Shown here: positions 288 through 29,408 of the stretch, piece by piece
How positions within the stretch are numbered: position 1 is the stretch's first letter
How the letters are laid out: every line of letters begins with the position of its first letter
Assembly (NCBI GenBank): GCA_030697795.1
Contig: JAUYOV010000004.1
Coordinates: 77,886-141,885, forward strand
Source of the DNA: a bacterium
GTDB taxonomy: Bacteria > Patescibacteriota > Minisyncoccia > JACQLN01
Direction: 5' to 3'
DNA: 64,000 bases
Notes under the pieces: model-generated
Database searches by the model: none
Seen by the model: the letters and a program-made list of their open reading frames with translations, nothing else
What the model was told of the DNA's origin: nothing
Position numbers and translations under genes: made by a program

Positions 288-518
288 ATGCCAAAATGCA
301 AGAAGTGCAACGACACTGGCTCAATAGAAACCGGTAATAACGATCTACCCTGCGATTGCTCCGCCGGTGCGACAGCCCTCTTCAACACAGCAGGGGTTAA
401 AGGGTCTGTGACTGGACAAGAAGTCCGGCGACATTTTCTAAATGGTTCGCCAGAACCCATCACTACCAGTGGGAATCCAATTCCGGCTTCAAGTTTGCCG
501 GGAAGACAGAAACAATAA
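288..518 (+). CDS. small Cys-rich hypothetical protein (CxxC...CxC), GC-rich relative to surroundings
   Basis: AAGGAGG RBS at 279-285 lies 5 nt before the ATG at 288. A strong intrinsic terminator follows at 543-580. The overlapping minus-strand ORF 203-526 lacks such signals. Confidence 0.45.
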   Translation: MPKCKKCNDTGSIETGNNDLPCDCSAGATALFNTAGVKGSVTGQEVRRHFLNGSPEPITTSGNPIPASSLPGRQKQ

Positions 519-1266: not shown

Positions 1267-3309
1267 TCAACCGACCATGTTTAAAAACTCACGCTCGGAA
1301 ATTATTTTTACACCAAGCTTCTCTGCTTTATCAAATTTAGACCCTGCATTTTCGCCGGCAATAACGTAATCGGTTTCTTTGGAAACTGACGATGATACAT
1401 CTCCGCCCATTAGGCGGATTTTTTCTTTGGCAGAATCGCGCGACAAAGTTTCCAATGTACCGGTTAAAACAAAAGTTTTACCCGCTAATTTTTTGGAGAT
1501 TTTAGGCGGAGACAAAACAGTAATTTGGCACCTAAGCAACTTGGTAATTAGTTGCCTATTTTCTTTGTTTTCAAACCAAGCTTTAATGCTGGCCGCAGCT
1601 TTCTCGCCCACGCCCGGAACTTTTTTTAAGTCTTCCTCACTAGCTAGGGTTAAATTTTCGATACTATTAAAATATACTGCGAGTAAATTCGCTGTCTCCT
1701 CACCTACGTGAATTATACCCAAAGCATATATAAACCTAGCTAAAGATATTTTTTTAGATTTTTGTATAGAAGCTACTAGTTTATCAGCCGAGATTTCGGC
1801 AAAACCTTCCAAACCTAAAAGATCTTTTGATTCTAATTTAAAAATATCGCTGGAATCTTTAACCAAGCCCTCATCCACCAGCTTATCTACAATCTCGCTA
1901 CCCAAGCCCACCATATTAAAAGCTTTTTTAGAAACAAAGTGATACAAGCCTTCTCTGTGTTGAGCGGGACATTTTTTATTTATGCATTTACGCGTAGCTT
2001 CACCCGCGAGACGCTTAATTTCGCCACTACATACCGGACATTTTCTAGGAAAATAAAATTCTTTAGAATTTTTTGGGCGTAATTTTTTTAAAACATTAAC
2101 TACGTCCGGAATAACATCCCCCGCGCGTTGCACAATAACCGTATCGCCTATTCTAATATCTAATCTTTTTATTTCATCTTCGTTATGAAGCGTGGCTCTA
2201 GTCACATTTACACCGTTAATATCTACCGAATCTAAAACTGCCACCGGCGTTAAAACTCCGGTGCGGCCAACTTGTATAATAATATCTAAAACTTTTGTCG
2301 TGGCTTCCTTGCCCGGAAATTTAAAAGCCACAGCTCCGCGCGGAGCTTTACCTACCACGCCTAATTTAGAAAAAATTTGATTATTGTTAACCGAAATAAC
2401 AAGCCCATCTATCTCCCAAGCCATCTTTTCGCGTTTTTTATAAATCTCGTTCCAAAAATTTGTAACGTCATCTATATTTTTAAGTTCCCTAGCTTCGGAG
2501 TCTGTCTTAAATCCTAAAAGTTTTAAAAGTGAATGTTTTTGGCTGTGTTCAGTTTGACCAAGATCTGTTACCAAATCATAAGCCAAAAAATCTAGTCTGC
2601 GTTTAGCTACAATAGCTGGATCCAGCTGGCGAACCGTGCCGGCCGCAGTGTTTCTAGGATTGGCGTATTCCGAAAGACCCAGCTTTTTTTGTTCTTGGTT
2701 AATTTTCTCAAAAACGGATTTTGTCATAAAAACTTCACCGCGTATTTCAATATCGCCCGCTGAAATTAACTTTAAAACTTCGTTAGAATCTAGCCCAAGT
2801 CTTTTTATTTCCGATTCTTTTAACTCGCGCAATTTTAAAGGTATGGCTTGTATTGTTTTTATATTTTCGGTAACATCTTCGCCTGTTTTACCATCGCCGC
2901 GTGTGGCGCCAATATTTAAAACTCCTTTTTTATAGGTTAAAGACACGGCAAAACCATCTATTTTAAGTTCGCCCAAAAAATCTAATTTCTCGTTTGGCAC
3001 AATTTTTGAAATTCTGGCGAGCCACGCTTCAAATTCTTCGGCAGTAAAAACATCTTGCAAGGAAAGCATAGGGACGTGGTGGCCTACTTTTTTAAAAAAC
3101 GGCAAAGGCTTGCCCCCCACACGCTGTGTGGGAGAATCTGGAGTTATTAAATCTGGGAATTTGCCCTCTAACTCGGAAAGTTCATGCTTTAAGCTATCTA
3201 GAGCTGAATCGGAAATTTCTTGTTTATCTAAAACATGATAAAGATAGCGGTGGCGTTCTACCTCCGTTTTAAGTTTTTCTATCCTAATTTTGGCTTGTTT
3301 TTTGTCCAT
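1267..3309 (-). CDS. ligA: NAD-dependent DNA ligase LigA
   Basis: KxDG adenylation motif (LKIDGFAVSL), Zn-finger cysteines, HhH and a BRCT tail. The likely start is MDKKQAK at 3309; the ORF-track start at 3351 is an upstream extension. Confidence 0.9.
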   Translation of the reverse strand: MDKKQAKIRIEKLKTEVERHRYLYHVLDKQEISDSALDSLKHELSELEGKFPDLITPDSPTQRVGGKPLPFFKKVGHHVPMLSLQDVFTAEEFEAWLARISKIVPNEKLDFLGELKIDGFAVSLTYKKGVLNIGATRGDGKTGEDVTENIKTIQAIPLKLRELKESEIKRLGLDSNEVLKLISAGDIEIRGEVFMTKSVFEKINQEQKKLGLSEYANPRNTAAGTVRQLDPAIVAKRRLDFLAYDLVTDLGQTEHSQKHSLLKLLGFKTDSEARELKNIDDVTNFWNEIYKKREKMAWEIDGLVISVNNNQIFSKLGVVGKAPRGAVAFKFPGKEATTKVLDIIIQVGRTGVLTPVAVLDSVDINGVNVTRATLHNEDEIKRLDIRIGDTVIVQRAGDVIPDVVNVLKKLRPKNSKEFYFPRKCPVCSGEIKRLAGEATRKCINKKCPAQHREGLYHFVSKKAFNMVGLGSEIVDKLVDEGLVKDSSDIFKLESKDLLGLEGFAEISADKLVASIQKSKKISLARFIYALGIIHVGEETANLLAVYFNSIENLTLASEEDLKKVPGVGEKAAASIKAWFENKENRQLITKLLRCQITVLSPPKISKKLAGKTFVLTGTLETLSRDSAKEKIRLMGGDVSSSVSKETDYVIAGENAGSKFDKAEKLGVKIISEREFLNMVG

Positions 3310-3383: not shown

Positions 3384-3752
3384 TTAGTAGGAAGCTTGAA
3401 AAGATCTCTGGACAGAACCCCTGCTACCAGTGCTTTTTACCTTTGTGTCATTACAATTATCAGTATAAGGAGCGATACCATCATCGTCTATATGAACTTC
3501 GTAGCCAGCTCCATTACCCATATCTAAATTTGTAAAACTGGCAGGGCTAGGGTCGGGGCTTATTTTGCCCGAACAAACATAAAACATTTTTTCAGCGCCC
3601 GAATCCGCCGCAAAAATAGCCGAAATAGAATCATCAACCAATCTTGTTACGCCAATTTGGCTTGTAGTTAAAATTGTAACGCCAAGAGCCGTGGCCATTA
3701 TGGTGCCCAGTAACAACATGGTTATTAGTAAAGCTATGCCTTGATTGTTCAT
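3384..3752 (-). CDS. PilX-like minor pilin
   Basis: N-terminal hydrophobic segment MNNQGIALLITMLLLGTIMATALGV, PilX_N-like. Adjacent to other minor pilins. Confidence 0.45.
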   Translation of the reverse strand: MNNQGIALLITMLLLGTIMATALGVTILTTSQIGVTRLVDDSISAIFAADSGAEKMFYVCSGKISPDPSPASFTNLDMGNGAGYEVHIDDDGIAPYTDNCNDTKVKSTGSRGSVQRSFQASY

Positions 3753-7788: not shown

Positions 7789-8322
7789 CTATGGCGATAA
7801 ACAATAAACAAAGTCTTCGCAATCAATGCCATAAACCGTGCCGTCCCTATCTGTATTTAAAGCTGAATTTGGCGTTTCTAACAAAGAAGCAATAACGTAT
7901 TTTTGAGGGTTGGAATCGTTATCTACCGCATAAGTGTAGCTATTACCCGAAGAATCGGCCGGCATATTTGTAATATAGGTAGTGCCGCCACAAGCCATTG
8001 GGGTAGCTACCGCTGGAAAAGTAGAGGCCGACAGATATTTGCCTATATCGTTATAGCAAAACTCTAAAGCTAAGGCTATTTGCCTGACATCGCCCAATCT
8101 TTTAGCATCTCTGGCTTTGGCTCTAGCCGAATTTAACGAAACCAAAACCACTGTGGCTAAAATACCAATAATGGTTATAACCACCAAAAGTTCCACCAAA
8201 GTAAACCCAGCACGCGAATAGCGCGCCTGCGCCCTTTGGGCTACGGCAACACGAAAGCGCCCACACGAATTTCTATTCGCGTCATTCGAGTGTATTCGCG
8301 TATTGGTGTCGCGTCTGTTCAT
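7789..8322 (-). CDS. type IV major pilin (PilA-like); N-terminal extension probably spurious
   Basis: GFTLVELLVVITIIGILATVVL class III signal. The annotated N-terminus (to 8322) is translated across an intergenic repeat that is also found at 8934-8970. Confidence 0.65.
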   Translation of the reverse strand: MNRRDTNTRIHSNDANRNSCGRFRVAVAQRAQARYSRAGFTLVELLVVITIIGILATVVLVSLNSARAKARDAKRLGDVRQIALALEFCYNDIGKYLSASTFPAVATPMACGGTTYITNMPADSSGNSYTYAVDNDSNPQKYVIASLLETPNSALNTDRDGTVYGIDCEDFVYCLSP

Positions 8323-8328
8323 TAAAAA

Positions 8329-8844
8329 CTAGGGCTTTACGTCGTAAATAGGATCGGTTCCAGCAAAGTCCGCAGGGCTACCAGTACAAGCAGTACCAGC
8401 TGCAGCATCAGCATCGCTACTAAAAGCAGTGTTACCAGCATTCTCTAAGGTAGAACCTAAATGATAGCTAGAACAAGAATCGCCCGAACCCAAAGCTGCG
8501 TAAGAATAAACAGCGGCGCTTTGAGGATCTTTTGGCACAGCACTAACAAAACCTCCGGTAACCAGAAGAGTTAATGAATCAAGAACTGTGCTACTAATAG
8601 CTGGGTAATCTTGGCCCGTATCGGCGGCAGCGCCGTCATGGCCTTGGTTAGAATCGTAATAGCTTTCTAAAGCCAAAGAAAGTTGGTGCAAATCGGCAAT
8701 TCTTCTAGCATCCCTAGCCTTGGACCGAGCGCTGTTTAACGAAACCAAAACCACCGAAGCCAAAATACCAATAATGGCGATAACAACCAACAACTCGACC
8801 AAAGTGAAACCTAAACCTTTATTTAACTTCATTGACTTATACAT
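8329..8844 (-). CDS. pilA: type IV major pilin PilA
   Basis: Leader MYKSMKLNKGLG followed by FTLVELLVVIAIIGILASVV. Confidence 0.75.
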   Translation of the reverse strand: MYKSMKLNKGLGFTLVELLVVIAIIGILASVVLVSLNSARSKARDARRIADLHQLSLALESYYDSNQGHDGAAADTGQDYPAISSTVLDSLTLLVTGGFVSAVPKDPQSAAVYSYAALGSGDSCSSYHLGSTLENAGNTAFSSDADAAAGTACTGSPADFAGTDPIYDVKP

Positions 8845-8965
8845 TTTATCTTTGTTTAATTTTTTAATTTTGAAAGATTAACCAGCGACACTAATTACTA
8901 ATAACACACGAATCTACGAATGAATTTTATTCGCGTCATTCGAGTGTATTCGCGTATTGGTGTCG

Positions 8966-10174
8966 CTACAGGCTACTGCTTAGATTATATATCGGAAGTA
9001 AAATAGCTGCAACTAAAACCCCTGCGGCAATACCCAAAATCAATATTAAAAGCGGCTGAATAAGCGAGGTTAGGTTTTCCATTATGTTATCCACATCTTT
9101 TTGGAAAAAAGTAGCTATTTTGGTGAGTAAAACGTCTAACTTGCCTGTCTGTTCGCCTATCATAATCATTTGAGAAACTAGGGGCGGTATATCTTTCTCT
9201 GCAGAAAAAACAGAATTTATAGTGTTACCCTTCCTTACTTCTTCCCTAGCTTTTAATATTATAGTTTTAAAAACAAAATTTCCCACTACGTCCGCGGTTA
9301 TAGTTAAAGACTGAATTATGGGAATACCCCCTTTAATTAGCGTGCCTAAGTTTTCTGAAAACCTGGCTAAATAAATTTTCCTAAATATTCCCCCAAAGAT
9401 TGGCAAATGCAACTTAATTTTATCCCAAGTGTCCTGGCCTTTTTTTGTTTGAAGCGTATACCAAGTGCCTACGCCCAGCCCGCTCAATATTAAAAGTGCC
9501 AGCCACCAATAATTTCTCATAAAATCGCTTAGGCCTATTATGGCTCTTGTTATAACAGGTAACTCTTGACCTGATTCCAGCAAAACTCCGGTAAGTTGAG
9601 GAATAACAAAAATCATCATAACAGCTCCCACAATAACCAAAGAGGCCACAACAAAAATTGGATAGGTTAGCGCGCCTTTAACTTTTTTGTTTAAGTCGTA
9701 AGATCTTTCTTCGTGATCCGCCAAATAATTAAGAACCTCTTGCAATCTGCCCGAAACTTCTCCGGCTTTCACCACCGAAACATAAAAAAAAGAAAAAACT
9801 TTAGGAAATTTTTCCAGAGATTGAGAAAAAGCAGTGCCAGAATCAACATCGGAAGCTACTTCTTTAATTATTTTTTTTAAAGCCGGCGCAGACTGTTCCG
9901 ACAATGTTCGTAAAGCCTGAACCAAAGGCACCTGCGCATCAAAAAGAACAGCAAGTTGTCTAGAAAAAATTACGAGGTCCTGATTTTTTACTTTATTAAA
10001 AAAAGGCAACTCACCGCTTAAACTTAAAGCGAAGCCTTTTTTTTCTTCGATGATTTCCAAAATAACCAACCCATAGCGATGCAAGGTTTCTAAAGCTACG
10101 TCTTTATTGGGAGCTTCTACCACACCGGTTTGAATAGCTCCTTGGGCTGTTCTGGCTTGATAATTGAACTTCAT
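8966..10174 (-). CDS. pilC: type IV pilus assembly platform protein PilC (GspF family)
   Basis: 402 aa; two GspF-type repeats; membrane helices. Confidence 0.9.
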   Translation of the reverse strand: MKFNYQARTAQGAIQTGVVEAPNKDVALETLHRYGLVILEIIEEKKGFALSLSGELPFFNKVKNQDLVIFSRQLAVLFDAQVPLVQALRTLSEQSAPALKKIIKEVASDVDSGTAFSQSLEKFPKVFSFFYVSVVKAGEVSGRLQEVLNYLADHEERSYDLNKKVKGALTYPIFVVASLVIVGAVMMIFVIPQLTGVLLESGQELPVITRAIIGLSDFMRNYWWLALLILSGLGVGTWYTLQTKKGQDTWDKIKLHLPIFGGIFRKIYLARFSENLGTLIKGGIPIIQSLTITADVVGNFVFKTIILKAREEVRKGNTINSVFSAEKDIPPLVSQMIMIGEQTGKLDVLLTKIATFFQKDVDNIMENLTSLIQPLLILILGIAAGVLVAAILLPIYNLSSSL

Positions 10175-10290
10175 ATAATATGCTAATCAACAAATTATGC
10201 GAATGATACGAATATTTTATACGAACTTTAATAACCTGTATTCGTTATTTTATTTGTATAATTCGCATACATTCGTATATTGGTATATTA

Positions 10291-11361
10291 TTAACGCGAT
10301 AGTAAAGTAGAGAGTTCGGACGGATTTAGCGAATATATTTCCGCATTTTCTAGCGATATCTGCCCTTGTCTAACTAATTCTGAAAGCGATCTGTTTAAAG
10401 AAATCATACCTTTATCTGTGCTGGTTTCTATAACTAAATCTATTTGATGTATTTTATTTTCTCGAATTAAATTTCTAACGGCATAATTAGCTATCAAAAC
10501 TTCCACGGCCGGCACTAAACCGCCATCTACTTTAGGCACCAAGCGTTGAGAAACTATACCCAAAAGAGCACCAGCTAATTGCAATCTTATTTGAGCTTGT
10601 TGTTCCGGCGGAAAGCTATCTAAAATTCTATCTACAGTCTGCGAGGCTGAATTTGTATGCAACGTGGCAAAAACTAAATGGCCCGTTTCGGCGGCTGTAA
10701 CGGCTGTAGCAATAGTTTCTTTGTCTCTCATTTCGCCTAACATAACCACATCGGCATCCTGCCTAAAAATAGACCTTAACGCCCTGTTAAAACTTAAGGT
10801 ATCCATACCAACTTCGCGCTGTTCTATAATGGCGCGATCCGGCGTAAAAATATATTCTATCGGGTCTTCTATGGTAATTATATGATCCGAACGCTTATGA
10901 TTTATTTCATCTATTAAGGCGGCCAAGGTGGTTGACTTGCCATGCCCTGTGGGGCCAGAAACAATTACGAAGCCTTGGCTGGGCCTAGTAAAATCTTTTA
11001 AAACATGGGGCAAACCCAGTTCATCTATACTTTTTATTTTGTGGGGAATCAGTCTTAAAGCCGCAGAAGTATAACCTTTTTGAATATAAATATTGGTCCT
11101 GAATCTTATTTTATCTTTAAAGCTAAAGGCAAAATCTATTTCCTTAAATTTTTTAAAACGCAGTTTTTTTTCTTCATCCATCAAGGCTAAACACAACCCT
11201 TCGGAACGTTCGGGGGTTACAATCTGTTTTTGAGCCAGTTGAATCAGTTCGCCATCAACACGCAACACCGGCGGACGGCCGGGCGCAATATGCAAATCGG
11301 ACGCCCCTTGTTCGGCCGCCACAAGCATTAACTCTTCTATTTCGCGTTGATAGTTATCCAT
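10291..11361 (-). CDS. pilT: twitching-motility retraction ATPase PilT
   Basis: 356 aa GspE-family ATPase core with Walker A SGPTGHGKST and no N-terminal extension. Confidence 0.8.
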   Translation of the reverse strand: MDNYQREIEELMLVAAEQGASDLHIAPGRPPVLRVDGELIQLAQKQIVTPERSEGLCLALMDEEKKLRFKKFKEIDFAFSFKDKIRFRTNIYIQKGYTSAALRLIPHKIKSIDELGLPHVLKDFTRPSQGFVIVSGPTGHGKSTTLAALIDEINHKRSDHIITIEDPIEYIFTPDRAIIEQREVGMDTLSFNRALRSIFRQDADVVMLGEMRDKETIATAVTAAETGHLVFATLHTNSASQTVDRILDSFPPEQQAQIRLQLAGALLGIVSQRLVPKVDGGLVPAVEVLIANYAVRNLIRENKIHQIDLVIETSTDKGMISLNRSLSELVRQGQISLENAEIYSLNPSELSTLLSR

Positions 11362-11553
11362 GCCAATTTTGTCTGCGAGAGTAGCGAGCAGTTACAAAAT
11401 TGAGCACCCCGCCCTTTAGGTTAATAATATATAATGCGAGTAAATTATTTTTTATCAAACTTGATTTCATATCTAATTATCTAATTAGACTATTTTTATT
11501 CAAAGGGCGGGGTAAGGTTTCGCGACCAATCGCTCCGCTCTTGGGCCAAGCCC

Positions 11554-11922
11554 TTACTTTAAAATATCTTTAACCTTCGCCACTACTTCTGTAGGCGTAA
11601 AATGCGCCTTTATAATATAACTTTGCGCGCCTAGTTCCAAACCTCTTTTAACATCGCTGTCTAAACCTAAATTGGTAAGCATTACCACCGGAATTTTTGC
11701 CATAACAGGATCAGATTTTAATATTTTTAAAACTTCAAAACCATCTTTTTTTGGTAAAACAATATCTAAAAGAATAAGTTCGGGCATAATTTCTTTGGCT
11801 TTAGCCAGACCCATTTCTCCATCTTGAGCCACAACCACATCAAAACCAACCTCTTTAAATTTTGTAGAGTACATATCCAAAAGAAACGGGTCATCCTCCA
11901 CAAGTAATATCTTATGTGACAT
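11554..11922 (-). CDS. single-domain response regulator (CheY/PilH-like receiver)
   Basis: Receiver motifs LLVEDDP...LLDIVLPKKDG...K. Confidence 0.8.
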   Translation of the reverse strand: MSHKILLVEDDPFLLDMYSTKFKEVGFDVVVAQDGEMGLAKAKEIMPELILLDIVLPKKDGFEVLKILKSDPVMAKIPVVMLTNLGLDSDVKRGLELGAQSYIIKAHFTPTEVVAKVKDILK

Positions 11923-12080
11923 ATTATAATATCTAATTCCTAATTTCTAATAAAATGCCTAATATCTAAACCCTAATGACAAATCAATGCCAAACGATTG
12001 AATGTCAAAGAAATAATAATTTATAATTAGTCATTTGGATTTGATTGGACATTTGTTATTAGAAATTTGTCATTTCAAAT

Positions 12081-13820
12081 TTACTCTTCTACTACTCTCA
12101 AAACTTCTTCAATAGAAACCAGCCCCACCAACGCTTTCATTATACCATCCTGTTTCATGGTAATCATCCCCTGTCTTTTGGCCTCTTCAGCTATAATATA
12201 ATCCGATAGTTCCTTGCTTAAAATAACCTTTTCCATTTCTTTATTCATTTCGATAGCTTCAAAAATAGCCAGTCGGCCTTTGGTACCTTTATGACCACAA
12301 GTAGCGCAACCCTTAGCTTCAAAAATCTTATACGGTTTTTTTATTCCATATTTTTCGGCTTCGGCTTCGGGCACCTCGGCCAAGGTTTCGTTAACCACCT
12401 TAGAAAATTTATCTGGCAAAGCCATCGGCTTAGCGCAGTCTTTGCACATCTTTTTAACCAATCTTTGAGCCATGCCGGCCACCAGCGTAGATGGAATCAA
12501 AAATTTATCTACATCCATATCCACCAAGCGGGGTATTATACCCACCGCATTATTAGTGTGAAGCGTAGAAAAAACTAAGTGCCCCGTTAAAGCAGCATGC
12601 GTAGCTAAACCGGCAGTTTCTTTATCGCGAATTTCGCCTACCATAATAATATTAGGATCTTGCCTTAAGATGCTCCTTAAGCCCGAAGCAAAAGTGTACT
12701 CAATTTCGGGTTTGATTTGAGATTGGTTAACGCCCGGAATATAATATTCCACCGGATCTTCCAAAGTAATAATATTGACGCCTTCTTTATTTACATAATT
12801 AAGCGTGGTGTAAAGCGTAGTAGATTTGCCAGAACCAGTGGGACCCGTAATTAAAATAACGCCGAAGGGGTTTTTAATAGCTCTTTCATAAATTTCTAAA
12901 CTTTTTCCAATCAAACCTAAATCCGTAAAATTTCCTACACCCGCGTTGGGATCTAAAATTCTTAGAGCAATTTTTTCACCAAAAGTCGTGGGCAAAGAAG
13001 AAACCCTAAAATCCACATTGTTGGCGCCAACCTTAGTGCGAAACCTACCATCCTGGGGAATTCTAGTTTCATCTATTTTAAGGTTAGATAAAACTTTTAT
13101 ACGGCTGATTATGGCGTTATGCGTGCTTTTGGGCAGTGTCATTGATGAATGCAAAGCGCCATCTAAACGAAAACGAATTCTCGTTTCATTTTCTAGCGGT
13201 TCTATGTGAATATCGGAAGCCTTGCCTTCGACTGCATACCGAAGCATAACCGCCACAACTTTAGTTATGGGAGCTTCGGCGGCTAGCTGTTCAACTTTTT
13301 CGCCGGTAAATTCCTCTGTACCAAGTTTTTCGACATCTTCGATTAATTCTTGATTTAACTGTTCAAGGGCGCTGGTAACCTCTTTACCAAGATTTCTATA
13401 CTTTTGAGAAACATTGGCAAAATCAGAATCTAAAATAACATAAACATTGGGCATGAAACCATTTTTTACAGAAATAAACTTTAAAGCTTCTCTGCCCTCA
13501 ACATCATCCGGATCAACCATGCCCACTATTAAATTGTTGCCATTTTTCTCTACTGGTAAAAACTTATAATGCAAAACGGCGTCTTCGGGCAAAAGCTGTA
13601 GAACCTCTGGCGGAATATTTTTGCCGGTAAGTTCAAGCAGGGGTAAACCCATAATAGCGCTTTTGGCTTTAAGAAATTCCGCTGGTTTTATTAAAAAATT
13701 CTTTAATAAAATTTGCTCTAATTCCGCCACATTGCTAAGCGCAGATAGAGCCAGCGATTTAGCCTGGCTCTCTTTAATTAAATTATTGTCTATAAGATAT
13801 GCAATTAATTTTTCTAGCAT
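12081..13820 (-). CDS. pilB: type IV pilus assembly ATPase PilB (GspE family)
   Basis: 579 aa; N-terminal GspII_E domains; Walker A GPTGSGKST; Cys tetrad. Confidence 0.9.
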   Translation of the reverse strand: MLEKLIAYLIDNNLIKESQAKSLALSALSNVAELEQILLKNFLIKPAEFLKAKSAIMGLPLLELTGKNIPPEVLQLLPEDAVLHYKFLPVEKNGNNLIVGMVDPDDVEGREALKFISVKNGFMPNVYVILDSDFANVSQKYRNLGKEVTSALEQLNQELIEDVEKLGTEEFTGEKVEQLAAEAPITKVVAVMLRYAVEGKASDIHIEPLENETRIRFRLDGALHSSMTLPKSTHNAIISRIKVLSNLKIDETRIPQDGRFRTKVGANNVDFRVSSLPTTFGEKIALRILDPNAGVGNFTDLGLIGKSLEIYERAIKNPFGVILITGPTGSGKSTTLYTTLNYVNKEGVNIITLEDPVEYYIPGVNQSQIKPEIEYTFASGLRSILRQDPNIIMVGEIRDKETAGLATHAALTGHLVFSTLHTNNAVGIIPRLVDMDVDKFLIPSTLVAGMAQRLVKKMCKDCAKPMALPDKFSKVVNETLAEVPEAEAEKYGIKKPYKIFEAKGCATCGHKGTKGRLAIFEAIEMNKEMEKVILSKELSDYIIAEEAKRQGMITMKQDGIMKALVGLVSIEEVLRVVEE

Positions 13821-14038
13821 GTGCCTTTTTTGTCTAAATTTTAGAGCTTCTTTGTAGCGAATAAAATTTAGCTACAAAAGAGAGCACCCCGCCCTTTATA
13901 TCAACTATAATTGTTTTGATTAAATTTATTTTCACTAGATTTGATTTCGTGCTTATTTTTTATATATTTTGCTTAAAGGGCGGGGTTAGGTTTGGCAACC
14001 AAGAAACGTTCACTTCGTTCCGTTTCTTGGGCCAAGCC

Positions 14039-14341
14039 CTAATCTGAGAATGGATTACTTTTTCCTGTTGTTTGCGTTTCTATGGGCACACCTGGGGGTA
14101 TTTGCAAACTTTTAAATCTTTCATCTTCTAAAATTTTAACTTTTAAATCCGAAACCTGATCAGCCACTGTGGCGCTGGGAGTTCCAGCTACAACTGCGCT
14201 TTGTTCTGGTTGAACTGGCGGAGGCGAGCTACTGCCAAAAAAACCAAAGTAAAGAATCCCAAAACTAACCAAAACCAAAACTCCAAAAACTGCTAATAAA
14301 ATCCTTTTCTTTTTTATTTCTTTTGTGACAATTACAGCCAA
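14039..14341 (-). CDS. small membrane-anchored hypothetical protein (possible PilP analogue); TTG start abuts a repeat
   Basis: One N-terminal TM segment, then a Pro/Ser-rich linker. Lies between pilO and pilB. No SD sequence. Confidence 0.3.
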   Translation of the reverse strand: MAVIVTKEIKKKRILLAVFGVLVLVSFGILYFGFFGSSSPPPVQPEQSAVVAGTPSATVADQVSDLKVKILEDERFKSLQIPPGVPIETQTTGKSNPFSD

Positions 14342-14414
14342 GTTAGCTTTTAGCTTTTAGCTTTTAGCTTTCTAGAAAGATTTTCTAAAAAGCTAAGGGG
14401 CTAGGAAGCTAATA

Positions 14415-15008
14415 TTATTTCTTAAGAATATATGTTTTCATGCCGATATTATAATCTATGGCGGGGTCAATATTGGGCAAACTTTCTCCTTCAGCTGTTT
14501 TCTTTTTTGTTATAGAAAAAGAAATCTGGCCGACATCTATGATTCTTAAACTTTTTTGCACCGCCGCCAACCAAGATTTAAAAGAAGAATAAGTGCCCGA
14601 AGCATTTATATTTATGAGCAACTTACTTATGGTTTCTTTGGATACAGTTTGGCCCCTGCGGTTAGAAGTAACACCTGTAGTTTCGTTGGGGGCTTCAATA
14701 TTTACAGAGACCAAGCTAAGACCATTTTGGTTGGCTAAGCTTTCCATAATGCTTATTAATTCCGGCTTAAATTCAGAACTGGGAATAGCTTGCTCTAACC
14801 GCTCCACATTACTTTTTTGAGAATCTAAAACTTGGTTTATAGAATTTAATTTTTCAATAATTTTTTTCTCCAATTCTATAGAGGTCTTTTTTAAACCAAC
14901 CTCTTTTCTTAAAGTTGAAACATCACCCCAGGTTGGTAGAAGCAAGAACCACACAACTAAAAAGGCGCCGGCAAAAACAATTGAATTAATTATTAACTTG
15001 CTATTCAT
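14415..15008 (-). CDS. PilO-like pilus assembly protein
   Basis: N-terminal TM segment plus coiled-coil; position in the pilMNO order. Confidence 0.5.
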   Translation of the reverse strand: MNSKLIINSIVFAGAFLVVWFLLLPTWGDVSTLRKEVGLKKTSIELEKKIIEKLNSINQVLDSQKSNVERLEQAIPSSEFKPELISIMESLANQNGLSLVSVNIEAPNETTGVTSNRRGQTVSKETISKLLININASGTYSSFKSWLAAVQKSLRIIDVGQISFSITKKKTAEGESLPNIDPAIDYNIGMKTYILKK

Positions 15009-15577
15009 TTCTTAATTATAAGGTCTTTAGCAAACACAATCTTTAAACCAAAATTAACTTTGCCCTCGGCCGACAAGGCAATGTTGGAAGACATCACTGA
15101 AACAACATGGGGCGTATCTTCAAGAATTTTGATCTGTTGAGCTAAAGCGGCATAACTGGGAGCCGCACCCGACATATTTATAATATTATCCGCATCGGAA
15201 GCTTCTAATGTTTTAAAAGTTATGGAATTTAGGGTTTTAGCCTCCAATACCTCAAAAAATAACGTCCAGTATTTATGCTCATCTAAAACTCCCTTAAAAA
15301 TTTCTAAAACTGAATTTAAGTTTTTTAAACGATTTTCCAAACTAACATCTCTTTGGCTGGTCAAATTTTGTAATTCGGTATTGAAAGCTTTGGCTTGATT
15401 ACTTAACTGATACTTCCAAAAATAAAGGCCACCGGCCACCACAAGAAGTAAGGCTATAAAACCCAAACCCAACTTTGAAAGAGCACTTAACTCTATATCT
15501 GGTTTTTTAAAAGAAGAAAACTTGGGCAAGCCATCGCCACCCGATTCTTCTTTTGGAATTAATGAAATATTTTCCAT
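15005..15577 (-). CDS. PilN-like pilus assembly protein
   Basis: Single TM segment and coiled-coil; overlaps pilO by 4 nt. Confidence 0.5.
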   Translation of the reverse strand: MENISLIPKEESGGDGLPKFSSFKKPDIELSALSKLGLGFIALLLVVAGGLYFWKYQLSNQAKAFNTELQNLTSQRDVSLENRLKNLNSVLEIFKGVLDEHKYWTLFFEVLEAKTLNSITFKTLEASDADNIINMSGAAPSYAALAQQIKILEDTPHVVSVMSSNIALSAEGKVNFGLKIVFAKDLIIKK

Positions 15578-15664: not shown

Positions 15665-16777
15665 TCATAGTCCTCGCATAGCCAGTCCAATCGAAACCGC
15701 TAAATTTGAACCCAGCTCACGCCTTAAAGTTTGTTCTAGAACAGCCTCGTATTTAATCTTGCCCAGCGGATTGCCCACGGTCACAACCACGCCCAACTTC
15801 TTGCTAAGATACTCTGCCATCCCCGGCATATTAGCGGTGCCACCTGTTAAAATTATTTTATCTATTTTCCTGTTCTCTTTCTTGCTAAAAATACTCTCCA
15901 TCCTTTCTATTTCGCTAACCAACCTATCCACAAAAGGACCAATCACTTGAGCCAGACCCTTGTCGCTAGCCGCCATGGCTACGCCCGAACCCTTTTTTAG
16001 TTCTTCGGCTCTTTTGGTATCAACATTTAAGCTATGCCCAATGATCTTGGTTAATTCTTTGCCAGAAAGATCAGCACTGTGGCTCATAAAAATAAAACCT
16101 TTATGCAAAATTGTTAAATTTGAACTTCTGGCGCCCATGTCTACTAGCATAATAGAGCTTGGATCGCCTCCAGCCAAAGAGCGGGCCAAACTAAAACTTT
16201 CGGATTCCAATGAGGCAAGTTTTAAACCAGCCCCCACAGCTATTCTTTGATATTTAGAAACAACTTCTTTAGGTACAGCAATAAGCAGCACCATTATTTT
16301 TTCTGGACGATTCTGGTTAACACCCACAGGAGCTTCTCCAGCTTTTAAAGCAGTAGTGGTTTCTTCGTGCGGCAGAACTATCCAATCCAAAACAACTTCC
16401 GATAACGGCACAGGAATATACGACCGAGCTTCAAAGGGTACTGCGCTTTCTAATTCTTTTTTATCCAAATTCGGTAACTCCATAACCGTAAGAAAACTAG
16501 AAAAAATAGGAATAGACATAACTGCTGTATCCGCCTTGATCTTTGTTTTTTCTAAAAGCTGTTTTATTAGCGCAGAAACATCACCCTCGGCTACCTTTAA
16601 ACCAGAGGGAATACTTGAACCATTGGTTATCTCTCCAAAAAAATCGGAATCTGAAATTAATCCGTAATTAGCCAACTTAATGAGGTTATCTTCTTTTTCT
16701 AGTTCGACGATCTTGATGGAGGAAGTACCAACATCAACGCCAAGCTGGCGCCGGATTTTACGACTAAATGGCCACAT
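15665..16777 (-). CDS. pilM: type IV pilus assembly ATPase-like protein PilM (actin fold)
   Basis: LGVDVGTSSIKIVEL N-terminus and the DxG actin-like motifs. Confidence 0.85.
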   Translation of the reverse strand: MWPFSRKIRRQLGVDVGTSSIKIVELEKEDNLIKLANYGLISDSDFFGEITNGSSIPSGLKVAEGDVSALIKQLLEKTKIKADTAVMSIPIFSSFLTVMELPNLDKKELESAVPFEARSYIPVPLSEVVLDWIVLPHEETTTALKAGEAPVGVNQNRPEKIMVLLIAVPKEVVSKYQRIAVGAGLKLASLESESFSLARSLAGGDPSSIMLVDMGARSSNLTILHKGFIFMSHSADLSGKELTKIIGHSLNVDTKRAEELKKGSGVAMAASDKGLAQVIGPFVDRLVSEIERMESIFSKKENRKIDKIILTGGTANMPGMAEYLSKKLGVVVTVGNPLGKIKYEAVLEQTLRRELGSNLAVSIGLAMRGL

Positions 16778-16885: not shown

Positions 16886-17548
16886 ATGATGATATCAAAG
16901 AAGATTGATTCTCTATTATTTCCGTCATTTTGCATAAACTGCAAAAGCGATACACCCGAAGAACCGCCGAGTTTGCGCTGGCTATGTTTAAACTGCCATA
17001 GGTTATTGATAACTAAATGGGAAAAAGTTTCTTTTAAGCCAGATATTAGCGAAAGCTATTATATTTTTGATTACCAAAAAGATAAGCTAGCTAAAAAACT
17101 AATTCATACACTAAAATACGATTTTGTTAAAGAAATCGCCGATACTTTTAATGTAGGTATAGAAAGCGAGCGTATTAATTTTAGAAGGCTAGTGTTTGAT
17201 TTTATTGTGCCGGTTCCCTTACATAGACGACGCTTAAAAGAACGGGGATTTAACCAGAGCGAATTAATTGCTAAAAAAATTAGCGAGATAACAGAAAAAC
17301 CAATAATTGATAATATTTTAAAAAGGAAAAAATACCGTAGGCCCCAAATGGAAGTTAAAAACCGCGAAGCTAGAATAAAAAACACTCAAAATATATTTGA
17401 GTGTGTCCAACACCAGGTGTTGGACAATAAAGTAGTTTTGCTGATAGACGATGTGGCTACAACTGGCGCTACCTTAAAAGAATGTGCCCGCGTTTTAAAA
17501 AACGCAGGCGCACGTAGTATTTTGTCGTTTACACTGGCGCAGGATTAA
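16886..17548 (+). CDS. comFC: competence protein ComFC (phosphoribosyltransferase-like)
   Basis: N-terminal Zn-ribbon (CINCKS...CLNCH) and PRTase motif LLIDDVATTGATL. Confidence 0.8.
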   Translation: MMISKKIDSLLFPSFCINCKSDTPEEPPSLRWLCLNCHRLLITKWEKVSFKPDISESYYIFDYQKDKLAKKLIHTLKYDFVKEIADTFNVGIESERINFRRLVFDFIVPVPLHRRRLKERGFNQSELIAKKISEITEKPIIDNILKRKKYRRPQMEVKNREARIKNTQNIFECVQHQVLDNKVVLLIDDVATTGATLKECARVLKNAGARSILSFTLAQD

Positions 17549-17580
17549 AAAAGAGGCGGTTTGTTTTCCGCCTCCTATCA
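17549..17580 (-). terminator. hairpin gaggcggtttgttttccgcctc followed by a T-run on the minus strand (terminates ORF 17594-18052)
   Basis: seen directly in sequence. Confidence 0.45.
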
Positions 17581-18052: not shown

Positions 18053-18170
18053 GGCTATATTCTCCTTGTTTAAAATGAAAAAACTATCCTTTTCTGTTTA
18101 CCAACAAAATACCATCTCCAACCATACCCGTCAATTCAACTTAGCATGAGCTTGCGATCGCAAGCTCGGG

Positions 18171-18317
18171 TGTGTCCAACACCAGGTGTTGGACACTAAA
18201 GTAATTTTGCTGGTGGACGATGTGGCCACCACCGGTGCCACATTAAAAGAGTGCGCCCGCGTTTTAAAAAACGCGGGCGCAGATAGAATATTGTCGTTTA
18301 CATTGGCGCAGGATTAA
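18171..18317 (+). pseudogene. duplicated 3' end of comFC (approx. 147 nt, ~90% identical to 17401-17548)
   Basis: Direct alignment; the fragment encodes ...VQHQVLDTKVILLVDDVATTGATLKECARVLKNAGADRILSFTLAQD*. Confidence 0.75.
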
Positions 18318-18359
18318 AAAGGGATTGCCGTCTTTTTGGCAACCCCCTAGGTTTTACTT

Positions 18360-18569: not shown

Positions 18570-18771
18570 ACTTGGCCTCCTTTTTTAGGTTTAAAAAACT
18601 ATCCTCTGCCGTTCCCCAAAAAACTACCACCTCCAACCCCAGCCGTCAAATAGATATACCGAGATAGCGATCGCTATCTCGGTATATACTAAATTTTATT
18701 TTTTATTATTTTTTTCTGTCCAACACCTGGTGTTGGACAATAAAGTAGTTTTACAAAATCGGGACATTGTT

Positions 18772-20909: not shown

Positions 20910-21027
20910 AAATATACTAATCTACAAATTGATACGAATTATACTAATGATTTAACGAATTCGTTTTATATTCGCATTATTCGTTAAGCTTATTCGTAGC
21001 ATTCGCATAGATTCGTATATTGGTATA

Positions 21028-21495
21028 TTACCAGCTGAAATGCGCAAAAGCCTTATTAGCTTCGGCCATACGATGAGTGTCGTTTCTTTTTCTAATAGCG
21101 TTGCCTTCGTTCTTGGAAGCCAAAATAATTTCTTCGGCTAATTTTTTATCTATAGATTTTCCTTTGCCATTTCGCGCCGCCGTAACCAACCAGCGCATAG
21201 CTAAGGTTAACTTTCTTTCACCCCGAACTTCGCGCGGCACTTGATAATTAGCGCCACCTATTCTACGAGATTTAACCTCTAAATGAGGCATAACATTTTT
21301 AACAGCTGTTTCAAAAATTTCCAAACCCGGTTTGTTTTCTTTCTTTTCTACATTGGCTAAAGCCGTATAAAAAATCTTTTCGGCTACTCTTTTTTCGCCA
21401 TCTTGCATTATTTTATTTATAAATTGAGAAACCAAAACACTGCCGTATTTAATATCCGGCTTAATATCGCGTTTGATGTTTATTTTTCGTCTCAT
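21028..21495 (-). CDS. rpsG: 30S ribosomal protein S7
   Basis: Full-length S7 homology. Confidence 0.95.
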   Translation of the reverse strand: MRRKINIKRDIKPDIKYGSVLVSQFINKIMQDGEKRVAEKIFYTALANVEKKENKPGLEIFETAVKNVMPHLEVKSRRIGGANYQVPREVRGERKLTLAMRWLVTAARNGKGKSIDKKLAEEIILASKNEGNAIRKRNDTHRMAEANKAFAHFSW

Positions 21496-21569
21496 GAACT
21501 AGCTTTTAGCTTTTTAGCTACTAGCTTCTTAGATTTTTCTAAAAAGCTAAAACCTAGAAAGCTAATTTC

Positions 21570-23200: not shown

Positions 23201-23239
23201 GTTGTCGGGCACATTCACTTTGCTGTGCCAAGTTTGACT

Positions 23240-23282
23240 TGGTCGGGCTGCGGGGAATCGAACCCCGTCTGCAAGTTCCTGG
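23240..23282 (-). other. orphan tRNA 3' fragment (T-arm CGGGG-TTCGATT-CCCCG, acceptor 3' strand, discriminator A and an encoded CCA) with no adjacent 5' half
   Basis: The T-loop consensus is read on the minus strand. The space to the neighbouring tRNA is too short for a full tRNA. Confidence 0.4.
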
Positions 23283-23296
23283 GAATTTTAATTTTG

Positions 23297-23367
23297 TCGG
23301 GGTAGGCGGAATCGAACCGCCGCTACAAACACCCCATGCTCGCGGGCTACCACTACCCCATACCCCG
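23297..23367 (-). tRNA. tRNA-Pro (anticodon GGG), CCA not encoded
   Basis: Manual fold. Acceptor CGGGGTA/TACCCCG; D-arm GGGT-AGTGGTA-GCCC; anticodon stem CGAGC/GUUUG with two G-U pairs; loop AUGGGGU (U33, GGG, G37); T-arm GGCGG-TTCGATT-CCGCC. Confidence 0.7.
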
Positions 23368-26782: not shown

Positions 26783-26800
26783 ATTTAAAAATAAAACTCT

Positions 26801-26899
26801 TTAAGCTCTGCTAGACCTTTCTTTAAATCTATTTTCAGTTATATGTGACCCAATAAACCCAGCTCCGCCCGTAACTATTACTTTTGTTTTTGACATCAT
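26801..26899 (-). pseudogene. 32-aa N-terminal remnant of an NAD-dependent epimerase/dehydratase (MMSKTKVIVTGGAGFIGSHI...)
   Basis: Rossmann GxxGxxG fragment that ends after 32 codons. Confidence 0.5.
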
Positions 26900-27001
26900 C
26901 AATTTAGTCTAAATATACACTCTAATATAACCAGAATTTAAGTCAAAAGTAACCCAAAAACTCCCCCGATTTGATCGGAGGAGTTTTTATTCATTACATC
27001 A

Positions 27002-28447
27002 TTATTGCTTCAGCAGAGCATCTATCTGGGCTTGTATGGCTTTCATCTGATCTTCAATCTGTTTCGTTAAAGCATCGTTTGAGGTGGTTTGTATGGGTGC
27101 TGGAATCGGAGCAACTGGAGCAGTTAAAGAATTAATCTGATCTTGAATGGCTTTGATCTGATTTTCAATCTGCTGGGTTTGTGAAGATTCAGTTGCGGGA
27201 GCTACTGGCAAAGGAGTAACAGGAACAACTATGCTTTCGCCACCCAACACTTCGTTAATTTTTGCCATCGTAGCTGGACCAACTCGGCCTACAGGGTTAA
27301 TACCGTACTTGGTTTGGAATTTTCTTACAGCGGCAGTTGTTTTAGGACCATAGAAACCAGACACTGTACCCTCGGGATAAATTTCGGGATCCCTAGCTAA
27401 CAATTTTTGTAAGTCCATAACTTCGTCGTTACGCGCGCCAGGGTTGAGTTCGGAATTAACACTCACGCCAACAACAGAAGAAACAGCCACAGCGCTACCA
27501 GAAGTCAGAGCTTGTATTTGAGATTGAATGGCTTGAATCTGCGAAGTTATTTGATCTGTTGTTTGATCTTGAACCGAAGGCTGGGCTATTTCTGCCGGTT
27601 TGGAACTTAACACCTCATTTATTTTAGCCAAAGTTGCTGGTCCTACTCTACCCACCACAGGCAAACCATATTTGGCTTGGAACTTTCTTACAGCCGCAAC
27701 TGTTTTTGGACCATAGAAACCGCTAACTGTGCCATCGGGATAAATTTCGGGATCCCTAGCTAACAACTTTTGCAAGTCCATAACTTCATTATTGCGTGCG
27801 CCGGGATTAAGTTCCTTCATTAAAACAGGAGACATACTGACAACGGACGCTGGAACCGACACAACCGGAGCAGGAGCCGTTACGGCTGGAGTTGCTGGTT
27901 TTGGTGCTGTAGTCGTTGTGGTCGTAGTAGTTGGAGTAGTAGCTGTTGTCGTGGTTGTGGTTGTAGGAGAAGCAGATGAGGATGAGGTTGAAGATGTCGT
28001 GGATGTTGTGGTCGTGGTAGTTGGGGTAGCTGTAGTTACTGTGGACGATCCACCACCGCCCGATGTGGAAGCCGCACAGGTGGTTGTATTGGGAGTTACA
28101 AACACCGTCTCTGCTGTTTGACCACTAGCCAAAGAAAGATTTAAAACCGATGAAGCACTGTTGCAGGCAAAACCAGCAATGGTATTTGTTTTAGTATAGC
28201 CAAAAGTAATCTTGTCTGCCGAAGTAAGATCTATAGAAGACCCTCCAGCCAAACCTATACTCAAGCTACTGTCCATAACAGTCATACTCTCAACAGTGCC
28301 ACTAGTAACCGTCAAATCAAGCACCGTACCACCAACAGTCACCCTTAAAGTCGTACCTGTTGTAAGACTAACATCATTATAAGCGGCAAAAGTTAAGACT
28401 GGAGAAAGCAACAAGGCTAGAGCAATTAGAAAATAAGTTAATTTCAT
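27002..28447 (-). CDS. secreted protein with a Thr-rich linker, two peptidoglycan-binding-like (PG_binding_1) repeats and C-terminal coiled repeats
   Basis: Signal peptide; duplicated ~75-aa segment ELNPGARN(N/D)EVMDLQKLLARDPEIYP(D/E)GTVSGFYGPKT..AAVRKFQ.KYG. Confidence 0.6.
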   Translation of the reverse strand: MKLTYFLIALALLLSPVLTFAAYNDVSLTTGTTLRVTVGGTVLDLTVTSGTVESMTVMDSSLSIGLAGGSSIDLTSADKITFGYTKTNTIAGFACNSASSVLNLSLASGQTAETVFVTPNTTTCAASTSGGGGSSTVTTATPTTTTTTSTTSSTSSSSASPTTTTTTTATTPTTTTTTTTAPKPATPAVTAPAPVVSVPASVVSMSPVLMKELNPGARNNEVMDLQKLLARDPEIYPDGTVSGFYGPKTVAAVRKFQAKYGLPVVGRVGPATLAKINEVLSSKPAEIAQPSVQDQTTDQITSQIQAIQSQIQALTSGSAVAVSSVVGVSVNSELNPGARNDEVMDLQKLLARDPEIYPEGTVSGFYGPKTTAAVRKFQTKYGINPVGRVGPATMAKINEVLGGESIVVPVTPLPVAPATESSQTQQIENQIKAIQDQINSLTAPVAPIPAPIQTTSNDALTKQIEDQMKAIQAQIDALLKQ

Positions 28448-29217: not shown

Positions 29218-29370
29218 TAACTTATTAATTTTTTAATCCAACAAGCCATGTACTTCTTTTTTAAAGAAACACAGAGGTCACTTGTTAGGTTATAAGTCTA
29301 ATACCTATATAACAGACAGTATACTATAAATCTAGGGAATAAAATAAACATAAGTTATCCACAAGAAAAT

Positions 29371-29408
29371 CCCGCACCTTTTTAATCAAAAAGGTGCGGG
29401 ATTAAATG
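29371..29408. terminator. strong intrinsic terminator (aatcccgcacctttt...aaaaggtgcgggatt)
   Basis: 14-bp stem flanked by T/A runs. Confidence 0.6.

Follow-up and report, generated by a model that had tools for sequence, protein, structure and literature searches.

In a 64,000-nt stretch of a patescibacterial contig (JAUYOV010000004.1 of assembly GCA_030697795.1, positions 77,886 to 141,885; hereafter the window), the gap between the gene for a 100-aa protein and pilB, which encodes the type IV pilus assembly ATPase, is filled by a strongly palindromic element. A second element of the same kind fills the gap upstream of pilT. The locus therefore raises the question of whether these elements regulate the two pilus genes, end the transcripts that lie upstream of them or belong to something more general.

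We found that the element (copy 2 upstream of pilB, copy 1 upstream of pilT) is not a regulator specific to pilB and pilT. The reading that we favour, with a probability of about 0.55, is that of a dispersed, modular intergenic repeat built of nested palindromes, which resembles repetitive extragenic palindromic (REP) sequences and bacterial interspersed mosaic elements (BIMEs) or miniature inverted-repeat transposable elements (MITEs) and would be co-transcribed as a block of hairpins between cistrons. The analysis demonstrates family membership, architecture, covariation of the hairpins, turnover and the absence of gene specificity. From its position and structure, we infer that transcription passes through the element and that it may act at the RNA level; the way in which it would spread is likewise inferred.

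Architecture of the two copies

The preliminary description regarded copy 2 as a second version of an element seen at 11402-11556, and the features on which this relied were recovered where it had placed them. The arms of copy 2, ACCCCGCCCTTTA (13886-13898) and TAAAGGGCGGGGT (13974-13986), form a perfect inverted repeat of 13 bp whose halves are separated by 75 nt; the same 13-nt arms recur in copy 1, as does the tail GGGCCAAGCCC, which is present exactly twice in the window. In copy 2 this tail (14029-14039) overlaps the stop codon of the 100-aa open reading frame (ORF), which is CTA at 14039-14041 and reads TAG on the minus strand, and the placement of the element between this stop and pilB on that strand was confirmed. 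The exact 12-mer ACCCCGCCCTTT was found four times in the 64 kb, solely as the two arm pairs, with 0.00 occurrences expected from 100 shuffles. The pairwise alignment proposed as a check extended across the entire intergenic region of both copies, with a mean column identity of 78%. In line with the structure noted earlier, the two copies folded far better than shuffled sequences (z = -6.7 and -4.6).

Read on the gene-sense strand, each copy consists of three hairpins placed end to end, here named H1, H2 and H3. In copy 2, H1 reads TAG followed directly by GGCTTGGCCC... and runs to ...AAACCTA. It contains the 10-bp hairpin previously reported as an addition to copy 2, CCAAGAAACG (13999-14008) paired with CGTTTCTTGG (14021-14030) across a 12-nt loop. 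The hairpin does exist, but no common core has been extended by it; rather, it is the long variant of the H1 module present in every cassette, of which copy 1 carries a short version (CCAA...TTGG). H3 starts with GCTC..TTTTGTA, after which the ATG of pilB or pilT follows directly.

Profiles of H1 and H3 were built from other loci only and then run on the window. The H1 profile matched copy 2 with an E-value of 0.008 and copy 1 with 3e-6, while the corresponding values for H3 were 0.03 and 1e-8; no third cassette was found in the window with these profiles. Two near-matches to the arm, at 7180 and 34204, both lie within coding sequence and were dismissed as chance. The modules of copy 2 also recur at other loci. 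Its long H1 shares 94% identity over 65 nt with a locus that has no pil homologues (L045) and that belongs to the same metagenome-assembled genome (MAG) as a locus whose pilB and pilT junctions lack the element (L002). Further, 54 nt of its H3 and tail are 100% identical to the sequence upstream of an unrelated gene in another locus (L147).

Gene context, hairpins and spread of the family

The preliminary description had tied the element to pilB. To place it in its gene context, 41 cassettes were found by the arm pattern alone, with no reference to pil genes, and their downstream genes were compared with Pfam. These genes matched 54 Pfam families, and T2SSE, which covers pilB- and pilT-like genes, accounted for 2 of the 41, somewhat above the expectation from gene frequency alone; pilus genes are not the rule. 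Downstream genes included those for SSB, SecY, Hsp70 (DnaK), MraZ, class I tRNA synthetases and an ABC transporter, and around a quarter of them encode ribosomal proteins (L19, S4, S18, L4, L16, L31, L11 and S15). In Parcubacteria-like genomes the cassette sits between co-directional genes.

In the converse test, loci were sampled by PilB homology. The cassette was observed upstream of both pilB and pilT in the window, upstream of pilB only in L001 (93% PilB identity), upstream of pilT only in L010 (86%) and upstream of neither gene in L002, L011, L004, L208, L210, L211 and L213 (61-77%). Close relatives are thus polymorphic for the insertion at pil junctions, most junctions of the PilB relatives lack a cassette, and the association with pilB did not hold. 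Junctions without a cassette were filled by other palindromes, of the ATACGAAT, TAAGACC and AGCTAAAAGC types. Elsewhere in the pil clusters, L208 carries a variant-arm H2 or cassette (ACCCCGCCCTCT/AGAGGGCGGGAT) between pilM and pilN (2081-2184), and L211 an H2-like stem whose arms are just about 18 nt apart, located between pilO and a small ORF (3493-3534).

The extent of the family was determined by scanning public collections for ACCCCGCCCTTT-N65-95-AAAGGGCGGGGT with exact arms. The pattern was present at 75 loci in bacterial genomes sampled at one per species and at no fewer than 120 loci in metagenomes; at least 165 distinct elements remained after de-duplication, with a main length peak at 97-101 nt and a second one at 109 nt. 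As the scan demanded exact arms, their invariance is partly a matter of construction. Variant arms, obtained as by-catch in the fetched loci, were nearly always altered on both sides (ACCCAGCCCTTT/AAAGGGCTGGGT and ACCCCGCCCTCT/AGAGGGCGGGGT). Exact-arm copies number two in the window and one to six per MAG among the matches, several MAGs holding two to six, and variant-arm copies come in addition. Most hosts belong to the Patescibacteria or the Omnitrophota, and an 811-kb contig and a 1.8-Mb chromosome are among their sequences; labels of other phyla were mostly attached to short, possibly mis-binned contigs. A single match in Streptomyces looks like an unrelated GC-rich palindrome. Carriage of the family by phages was also discarded, as only one viral contig showed the arm pattern.

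Nearly all members lie between ORFs. In 54 elements of Parcubacteria type, the flanks are shared in the order stop-H1-AACCTT, H2, GCTCAA-H3-ATG, the common layout being a stop codon, (A)GGGCTTTG...CAAAACCTT(T), H2, GCTCAATTTTGT...ACAAAATTGGC and the ATG. H1 starts 0-1 nt past a TAA, TAG or TGA codon or shares the last G of the stop, 0-2 nt separate the end of H3 from the ATG of the next gene, and the polarity of the flanks matches gene direction in 29 cases versus 1. Of the three-hairpin cassette of Patescibacteria, only the central hairpin, H2, is also found in Omnitrophota, where the flanks differ (GAATT.. and ..AATTC on either side of H2, with ACTTACG-type hairpins) and the overall plan is alike. 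Omnitrophota and Patescibacteria have been reported to exchange genes in groundwater (PMC12455944), and this offers a possible route by which the element came to be shared.

The family appears to be an undescribed repeat, with no Rfam model and no relevant paper in a full-text search by arm sequence. At the gathering threshold, Rfam 15 reported only tRNA in the window. Twelve related loci likewise yielded nothing but tRNAs. A permissive search (E up to 10) placed nothing over the H2 hairpins of either copy, and the overlaps with cassettes were at chance level only (SscA with 20 bits against a threshold of 60, and Atu_C9 with 14 against a threshold of 40). Likewise, literature searches by arm sequence strings and for repeats of the candidate phyla radiation, invertons and tRNA introns yielded no description of the family.

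The outer modules are real hairpins, because cognate strands paired far better than strands combined across cassettes: -11.2 vs. -7.6 kcal/mol for H1 and -11.1 vs. -5.2 kcal/mol for H3 (permutation p<0.0002). RNAalifold revealed compensatory changes in the H1 stem among eight close relatives, and the mean minimum free energy of H2 was -38 kcal/mol compared to -32 kcal/mol with a shuffled interior. An attenuator-like alternative, in which the 3' strand of H1 would pair with the 5' strand of H3, was rejected, as neither of the alternative pairings (2-3 and 1-4) gave a covariation signal (p=0.12 and 0.73).

The interior of H2 is variable both in sequence and in orientation. Even within the closest subfamily, interiors are only 63-85% identical. 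Among 119 pairs of elements with alignable interiors, 24 had the interior reversed relative to the flanks. H2 is flipped between two collinear contigs of about 85% identity (L050 and L077) and likewise between the diverged orthologous loci L096 and L102; between L172/L178 and L182, the interior is flipped and the immediate flanks align forward. When the flanks were near-identical, 38 pairs were concordant in H2 orientation and none was discordant, whereas 30 were concordant and 25 discordant when the flanks were similar only at the class level. These counts indicate that H2 is oriented at random between loci and that flips are rare at any given locus. Random orientation speaks against the idea that, throughout the family, the interior carries anything tied to one strand, be it a promoter or a coding sequence, and the lack of flips at near-identical loci argues against a fast phase switch. 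Sigma-70-like promoters were not in excess in the interiors, being present in 41 of 165 elements compared to 49 +/- 5 in shuffles.

We therefore favour a repeat in which a three-hairpin unit fills the gap between co-directional genes, with H1 at the stop codon, an H2 of about 100 nt and H3 at the ATG. The basal stem of H2, ACCCCGCCCTTT/AAAGGGCGGGGT, is the family-wide constant and encloses a highly variable interior of about 75 nt. Modules would be copied and recombined among loci and genomes, with H2 acting like a symmetric module that fits in either orientation. The cassettes of the pil operon are most likely transcribed within a polycistronic mRNA. There, H1 would cap the upstream cistron at its 3' end, H3 would do so for the following cistron at its 5' end, the long H2 duplex could serve as an endonuclease site, and the hairpin block as a whole may uncouple the stability or translation of the adjoining cistrons.

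Competing readings and known relatives

Several observations weigh against this reading. No transposase, RAYT (REP-associated tyrosine transposase) or recombinase was linked to the family, although no search for recombinases was made and ORFs outside the pil cluster were left unannotated; neither was a target-site duplication found beside H2 or the cassette in the loci examined, nor an empty H1-H3 junction, that is, a clean empty site, in 1.37 Mb of fetched loci. Exact copies (2 per 64 kb, and 1-6 per MAG among the matches) are far fewer than those of classical REP sequences. Cassettes end within 0-2 nt of stop and start codons whichever stop is used, a precision that purely selfish insertion does not explain, and two phyla share an identical 24 nt of arm sequence, which is unusual for REP-like elements, these being lineage-specific. 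With regard to strand, H2 folds equally well on both, while the better fold is that of the sense strand for H1 and that of the antisense strand for H3, a pattern that inverted copies of one hairpin type would be expected to produce. On this evidence, the hairpins could matter equally at the DNA level, and the strand tests gave no proof of selection at the RNA level.

The alternative that deserves the most attention, doubtful as we consider it, is a neutral filler: a palindrome, mobile or duplicative, that genomes simply tolerate in the gaps between genes and that plays no part in expression. The fast gain, loss and replacement by unrelated palindromes at the same junctions of close relatives would fit it well, as would the hypervariable interior of H2 with no preferred orientation and the lack of a promoter excess. 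This contrasts with the precise setting of the cassette ends against stop and start codons, with an orientation of H1 and H3 that follows gene direction and with the share of ribosomal-protein genes downstream; moreover, nearly every operon spacer holds a stable hairpin, which suggests that hairpins are selected or are made by some general process. Termination of the transcript that comes from pilMNO and the 100-aa ORF, as raised in the preliminary description, is a good deal less probable. The very stable GC-rich stem just past the stop codon speaks for an intrinsic terminator, and so do a T-run directly after H2 in a minority of members (L050, L077, L177 and L181) and a weak terminator-like site flagged by the scanner at 13895-13881. 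However, the loop measures 75 nt, the stem is followed by GCUCUCUUUUG with four U starting 7 nt away, the scan gave 2 terminator-like sites where 3.0 were expected, and the family lies between co-directional genes, including upstream of ribosomal-protein genes. Loop size, distance to the U residues and the latter gene context together make intrinsic termination of the usual kind unlikely. Two other spacers of the window do contain canonical terminator-like hairpins, in which the loop measures 3-4 nt and a U-tract follows at once (AATCCCGCACCTTTTT-GATT-AAAAAGGTGCGGGATTTT at 29368-29403, and AAAAACTCCTCCGATCAAATCGGGGGAGTTTTT in the spacer 26783-27001).

Little credence can likewise be given to a ribosome landing pad, in which the GC-rich stem would expose an AU-rich loop with a start codon and a coupling upstream ORF would deliver ribosomes in a genome without Shine-Dalgarno sites. 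A conserved ATGAAAT in the H2 loop does open a frame of 33-45 codons in copy 1, L001, L010, L035 and L147, which passes the 3' arm (K-G-G-V-L) and H3 and whose end lies between 7 nt ahead of the main ATG and 8 nt past it (13 nt ahead of it in L147). This frame, suggestive in the pil subfamily only, is open in 5/5 aligned members (column-shuffle p=0.016), the one indel between members is of 3 nt, and a Shine-Dalgarno-like motif precedes only 3 of the 59 long ORFs of the window. Copy 2, however, has ACG where the others have ATG, variable sites show no excess at third codon positions (9, 10 and 11 by position), open frames across the arms are equally common on the antisense strand family-wide, and the orientation of the interior is not fixed between loci. 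An inverton, with the inverted repeats as recombination sites and the 75-nt interior as an invertible promoter for phase-variable pili, is very unlikely. It would account for inverted repeats around an AT-rich segment upstream of pilus genes and for the interiors flipped on collinear flanks (L050 vs. L077, L172/L178 vs. L182); it is at odds with the promoter counts, with the 0 flips in 38 pairs with near-identical flanks, with an orientation that is the same in all eight members of the pil subfamily and with the housekeeping genes that the family precedes. Least credible is a cis-regulatory RNA, riboswitch or leader, dedicated to pilB and pilT. Both cassettes of the window precede the two type IV pilus ATPase genes, and two independently found cassettes (L022 and L057) precede pilT- or pilB-like genes, which makes up the 2 of 41 mentioned above. 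This reading is nevertheless largely refuted by the gene distribution, as 39 of the 41 downstream genes are unrelated to pili and seven related loci have no cassette at their pilB and pilT junctions. In addition, the permissive Rfam search gave no match over H2, and the interior of H2, which would have to bind the ligand, is the part that is variable and inverted between members.

A subset of members is located in tRNA genes. A complete tRNA was found between the arms in 7 of 165 elements (Thr-CGU in four, and Glu-CUC, Leu-UAG and Ile-GAU in one each). Five of the seven have the two halves of an outer tRNA body, which resembles the same amino-acid type, on either side of the arms, with H2 in place of the anticodon loop; of the other two, one has an outer 5' half that looks truncated (L122) and one runs off its contig (L099). 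Once H2 had been swapped for a 5-bp stem with a 7-nt loop, ARAGORN recognised a tRNA in the outer body of 4 of the 7. No recognisable anticodon was found that simple excision of H2 would restore. In L170 (2100-2280), a tRNA-Gly(CCC) is nested likewise between other 12-nt arms (CCCCCACACCAA/TTGGTGTGGGGG) in an apparent second tRNA-Gly, with CAAG on both sides. A recent paper on tRNA introns in Patescibacteria describes group I introns only, and the words nested, hairpin, palindrome and inverted repeat do not appear in it (PMC13011429).

These members raise another possibility, which we regard as improbable: H2, a shared 12-bp GC clamp around some 75 nt of cargo, could represent a hitherto undescribed type of intervening or mobile DNA common to two bacterial phyla, Patescibacteria and Omnitrophota, that can occupy the anticodon arm of a tRNA gene and at the same time carry a whole tRNA of that amino-acid type (tRNA-in-tRNA), while the stop-to-start cassette would be a site of operon punctuation. 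A dedicated endonuclease, or RNase P, Z or III, would cut the polycistronic RNA at the three-hairpin cassette, so that the upstream mRNA would be capped by a hairpin and the downstream one would be nearly leaderless. Such processing would be similar to mitochondrial tRNA punctuation, here in a lineage almost without Shine-Dalgarno sites. The 12-bp GC-rich duplex that replaces the anticodon loop in these members also recalls helix-extending rRNA intervening sequences and split archaeal tRNAs. In Nanoarchaeum, the halves of split tRNAs are joined through complementary GC-rich leaders of 12-14 nt. The members described here differ from split or intron-containing archaeal tRNAs in their perfect stem without a bulge-helix-bulge, in their bacterial hosts and in that excision restores no recognisable anticodon. 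Copy 2, unlike these members, is not in a tRNA.

Returning to the dispersed repeat that we favour, the systems closest in kind are probably the REP/BIME-REPIN and Correia-type elements, although the family departs, or may depart, from them in several defining features (no target duplication, no known transposase and a low copy number). REP sequences and BIMEs of E. coli and Pseudomonas, which are mobilised by RAYT proteins, act as stabilisers of mRNA 3' ends. Like the cassette family, they are short imperfect palindromes in intergenic DNA, often between genes that are co-transcribed (in the cassette family, most likely so), and form mosaics of hairpin units in alternating orientation; REPINs share with it the conserved inverted ends, the more variable middle and the single hairpin of about 100 nt. 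The cassette family differs in that no RAYT has been linked to it, in that it has no GTAG-type motif and a low number of exact-arm copies (REP sequences reach tens to hundreds per genome), in that its 24-nt arms are the same in two phyla, whereas REP sequences are lineage-specific, and in that it fills the exact interval between one gene's stop codon and the next gene's start.

Correia elements (CREE) and MITEs such as ERIC, RUP, BOX and the Rickettsia palindromic elements are similar in size (about 100-150 bp), in their terminal inverted repeats, in being intergenic and, as is predicted for the cassette, co-transcribed, in their presence/absence polymorphism and in occurring in both orientations. 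Paired repeats of Correia elements in RNA are substrates of RNase III. Correia elements, however, duplicate TA upon insertion, whereas the cassette family has no target-site duplication (...AACCTT and GCTCAA... border H2, or GAATTn and nnAATTC in Omnitrophota). Unlike Correia elements and MITEs, it also has no known related full-length insertion sequence, an interior that is hypervariable rather than conserved, and the extra modules H1 and H3 of fixed polarity. Invertons such as fimS and those of Bacteroides resemble it in their inverted repeats, which enclose a short, AT-rich stretch ahead of genes for surface structures, and in the presence of both orientations across the family. In the cassette family, by contrast, promoters are not enriched, flips are rare at orthologous loci, the elements are far shorter, the downstream genes are mostly housekeeping genes and no linked invertase was identified, though no recombinase search was made.

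For this window, the tempting reading of a dedicated pilB/pilT regulator is thereby removed, and the two copies become members of a family that occupies exact stop-to-start gaps in streamlined Patescibacteria genomes making little use of Shine-Dalgarno sites. Of wider interest are the sharing of the same 24-nt stem by Patescibacteria and Omnitrophota, the predominance of stable hairpins in the spacers of this window and the occasional nesting in tRNA genes together with a second tRNA. Should the hairpins act as signals for processing or stabilisation, they would be relevant to operon expression in organisms that are not yet culturable; if the family is mobile, it would mark the exchange of DNA between Patescibacteria and Omnitrophota.

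The pil locus and other repeats of the window

With a GC content of about 37%, the window is AT-rich, and 57 of its 59 long ORFs lie on the minus strand, as do the pil genes. The top homologues of its PilB are from Patescibacteria, with source names that include 'Patescibacteria group bacterium' and 'Candidatus Sungbacteria'; the closest relatives are found in 0.1-um fractions of Hainich groundwater. The coordinates of the locus, of the modules of both copies and of related features in other loci are collected in the table.

Features of the pil locus in the window and of selected members in other loci
Feature	Locus	Coordinates	Strand	Remarks
pilM	window	15665-16777	minus	
190-aa ORF	window	15005-15577	minus	unannotated
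pilO	window	14415-15008	minus	
100-aa ORF	window	14039-14341	minus	upstream of copy 2; gene of 94-102 aa at the same position in relatives
Element copy 2	window	13821-14038	minus	entire spacer between the 100-aa ORF stop and the pilB ATG
H1 of copy 2	window	13987-14041	minus	from the TAG stop of the 100-aa ORF; holds the GGGCTTGGCCC 'tail' and the 10-bp stem (13999-14030)
H2 of copy 2	window	13886-13986		family hallmark; 13-bp GC-rich arms, 75-nt AT-rich interior
H3 and tail of copy 2	window	13821-13885	minus	TTTTGTAGC...GCTACAAAG and a second small palindrome; 0 nt to the pilB ATG (13820)
pilB (type IV pilus assembly ATPase)	window	12081-13820	minus	downstream of copy 2; Pfam T2SSE E=3e-121, MshEN 8e-14
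Receiver-domain (response-regulator) gene	window	11554-11922	minus	upstream of copy 1
Element copy 1	window	11362-11553	minus	gap from the response-regulator stop to the pilT ATG
H1 of copy 1	window	11514-11556	minus	from the TAA stop of the response-regulator gene (11554-11922)
H2 of copy 1	window	11406-11513		same arms, 82-nt interior
H3 of copy 1	window	11362-11405	minus	GCTCAATTTTGT...ACAAAATTGGC; abuts the pilT ATG (11361)
pilT	window	10291-11361	minus	Pfam T2SSE 6e-48
pilC	window	8966-10174	minus	
Two pilins	window	8329-8844, 7789-8322	minus	
Other palindromic fillers	window	8271-8312, 8925-8966, 10248-10289, 20988-21029; 14343-14378 and 21497-21567; 11923-12080; 17404-17431, 18173-18200, 18712-18739		
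Nested tRNA	L170	2420-2580		
Nested tRNA	L055	3600-3760		
Nested tRNA	L142	3550-3710		
Nested tRNA	L204	4505-4660		same as L132 and L164
Nested tRNA	L089	11780-11960		
Nested tRNA	L099	2930-3070		
Nested tRNA	L122	8200-8370		
Poly-lysine ORF	L050	~290-335		
Poly-lysine ORF	L077	~300-343		
Poly-lysine ORF	L093	~1885-1925		
Poly-lysine ORF	L177	~8180-8222		
Poly-lysine ORF	L179		reverse	

Stable folding is not confined to the two cassettes. Within the window, 13 of 21 intergenic spacers folded with z<-2, compared to 7 of 36 coding controls, and the majority of the pil-cluster spacers are strong palindromes. Hairpins between cistrons thus appear to be a general property of this genome, the GC-clamped cassette being one recurrent type among several. 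Further repeated families of palindromic filler were observed in the spacers, of the ATACGAAT, AGCTAAAAGC and TAATTTCTAAT types, together with the perfect palindrome TGTCCAACACCAGGTGTTGGACA. TATA-like hexamers lie 1-10 nt before many ORF starts of the window, which suggests leaderless or short-leader mRNAs.

Several minor observations were made alongside. In five members of the family (L050, L077, L093, L177 and L179), a conserved poly-lysine mini-ORF (ATGGCAAAGAAAAAAAAGAAGAAGAAATAA, MAKKKKKKK*) lies about 10 nt upstream of H2; in four of these (L050, L077, L177 and L179), a T-run after the hairpin gives the site a terminator-like look. Within the window, a 481-aa ORF (27002-28447) contains a GTTGTGGTC-like repeat tract with a 9-nt period at 27879-28044, and a direct repeat of 150 nt with 88% identity is present at 17401-17551 and 18170-18320, its copies 769 nt apart. 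Finally, two tRNA-like segments separated by 54 nt were observed at 23230-23367 (repeat D19), of which only the second (23297-23367) reached the Rfam tRNA threshold.

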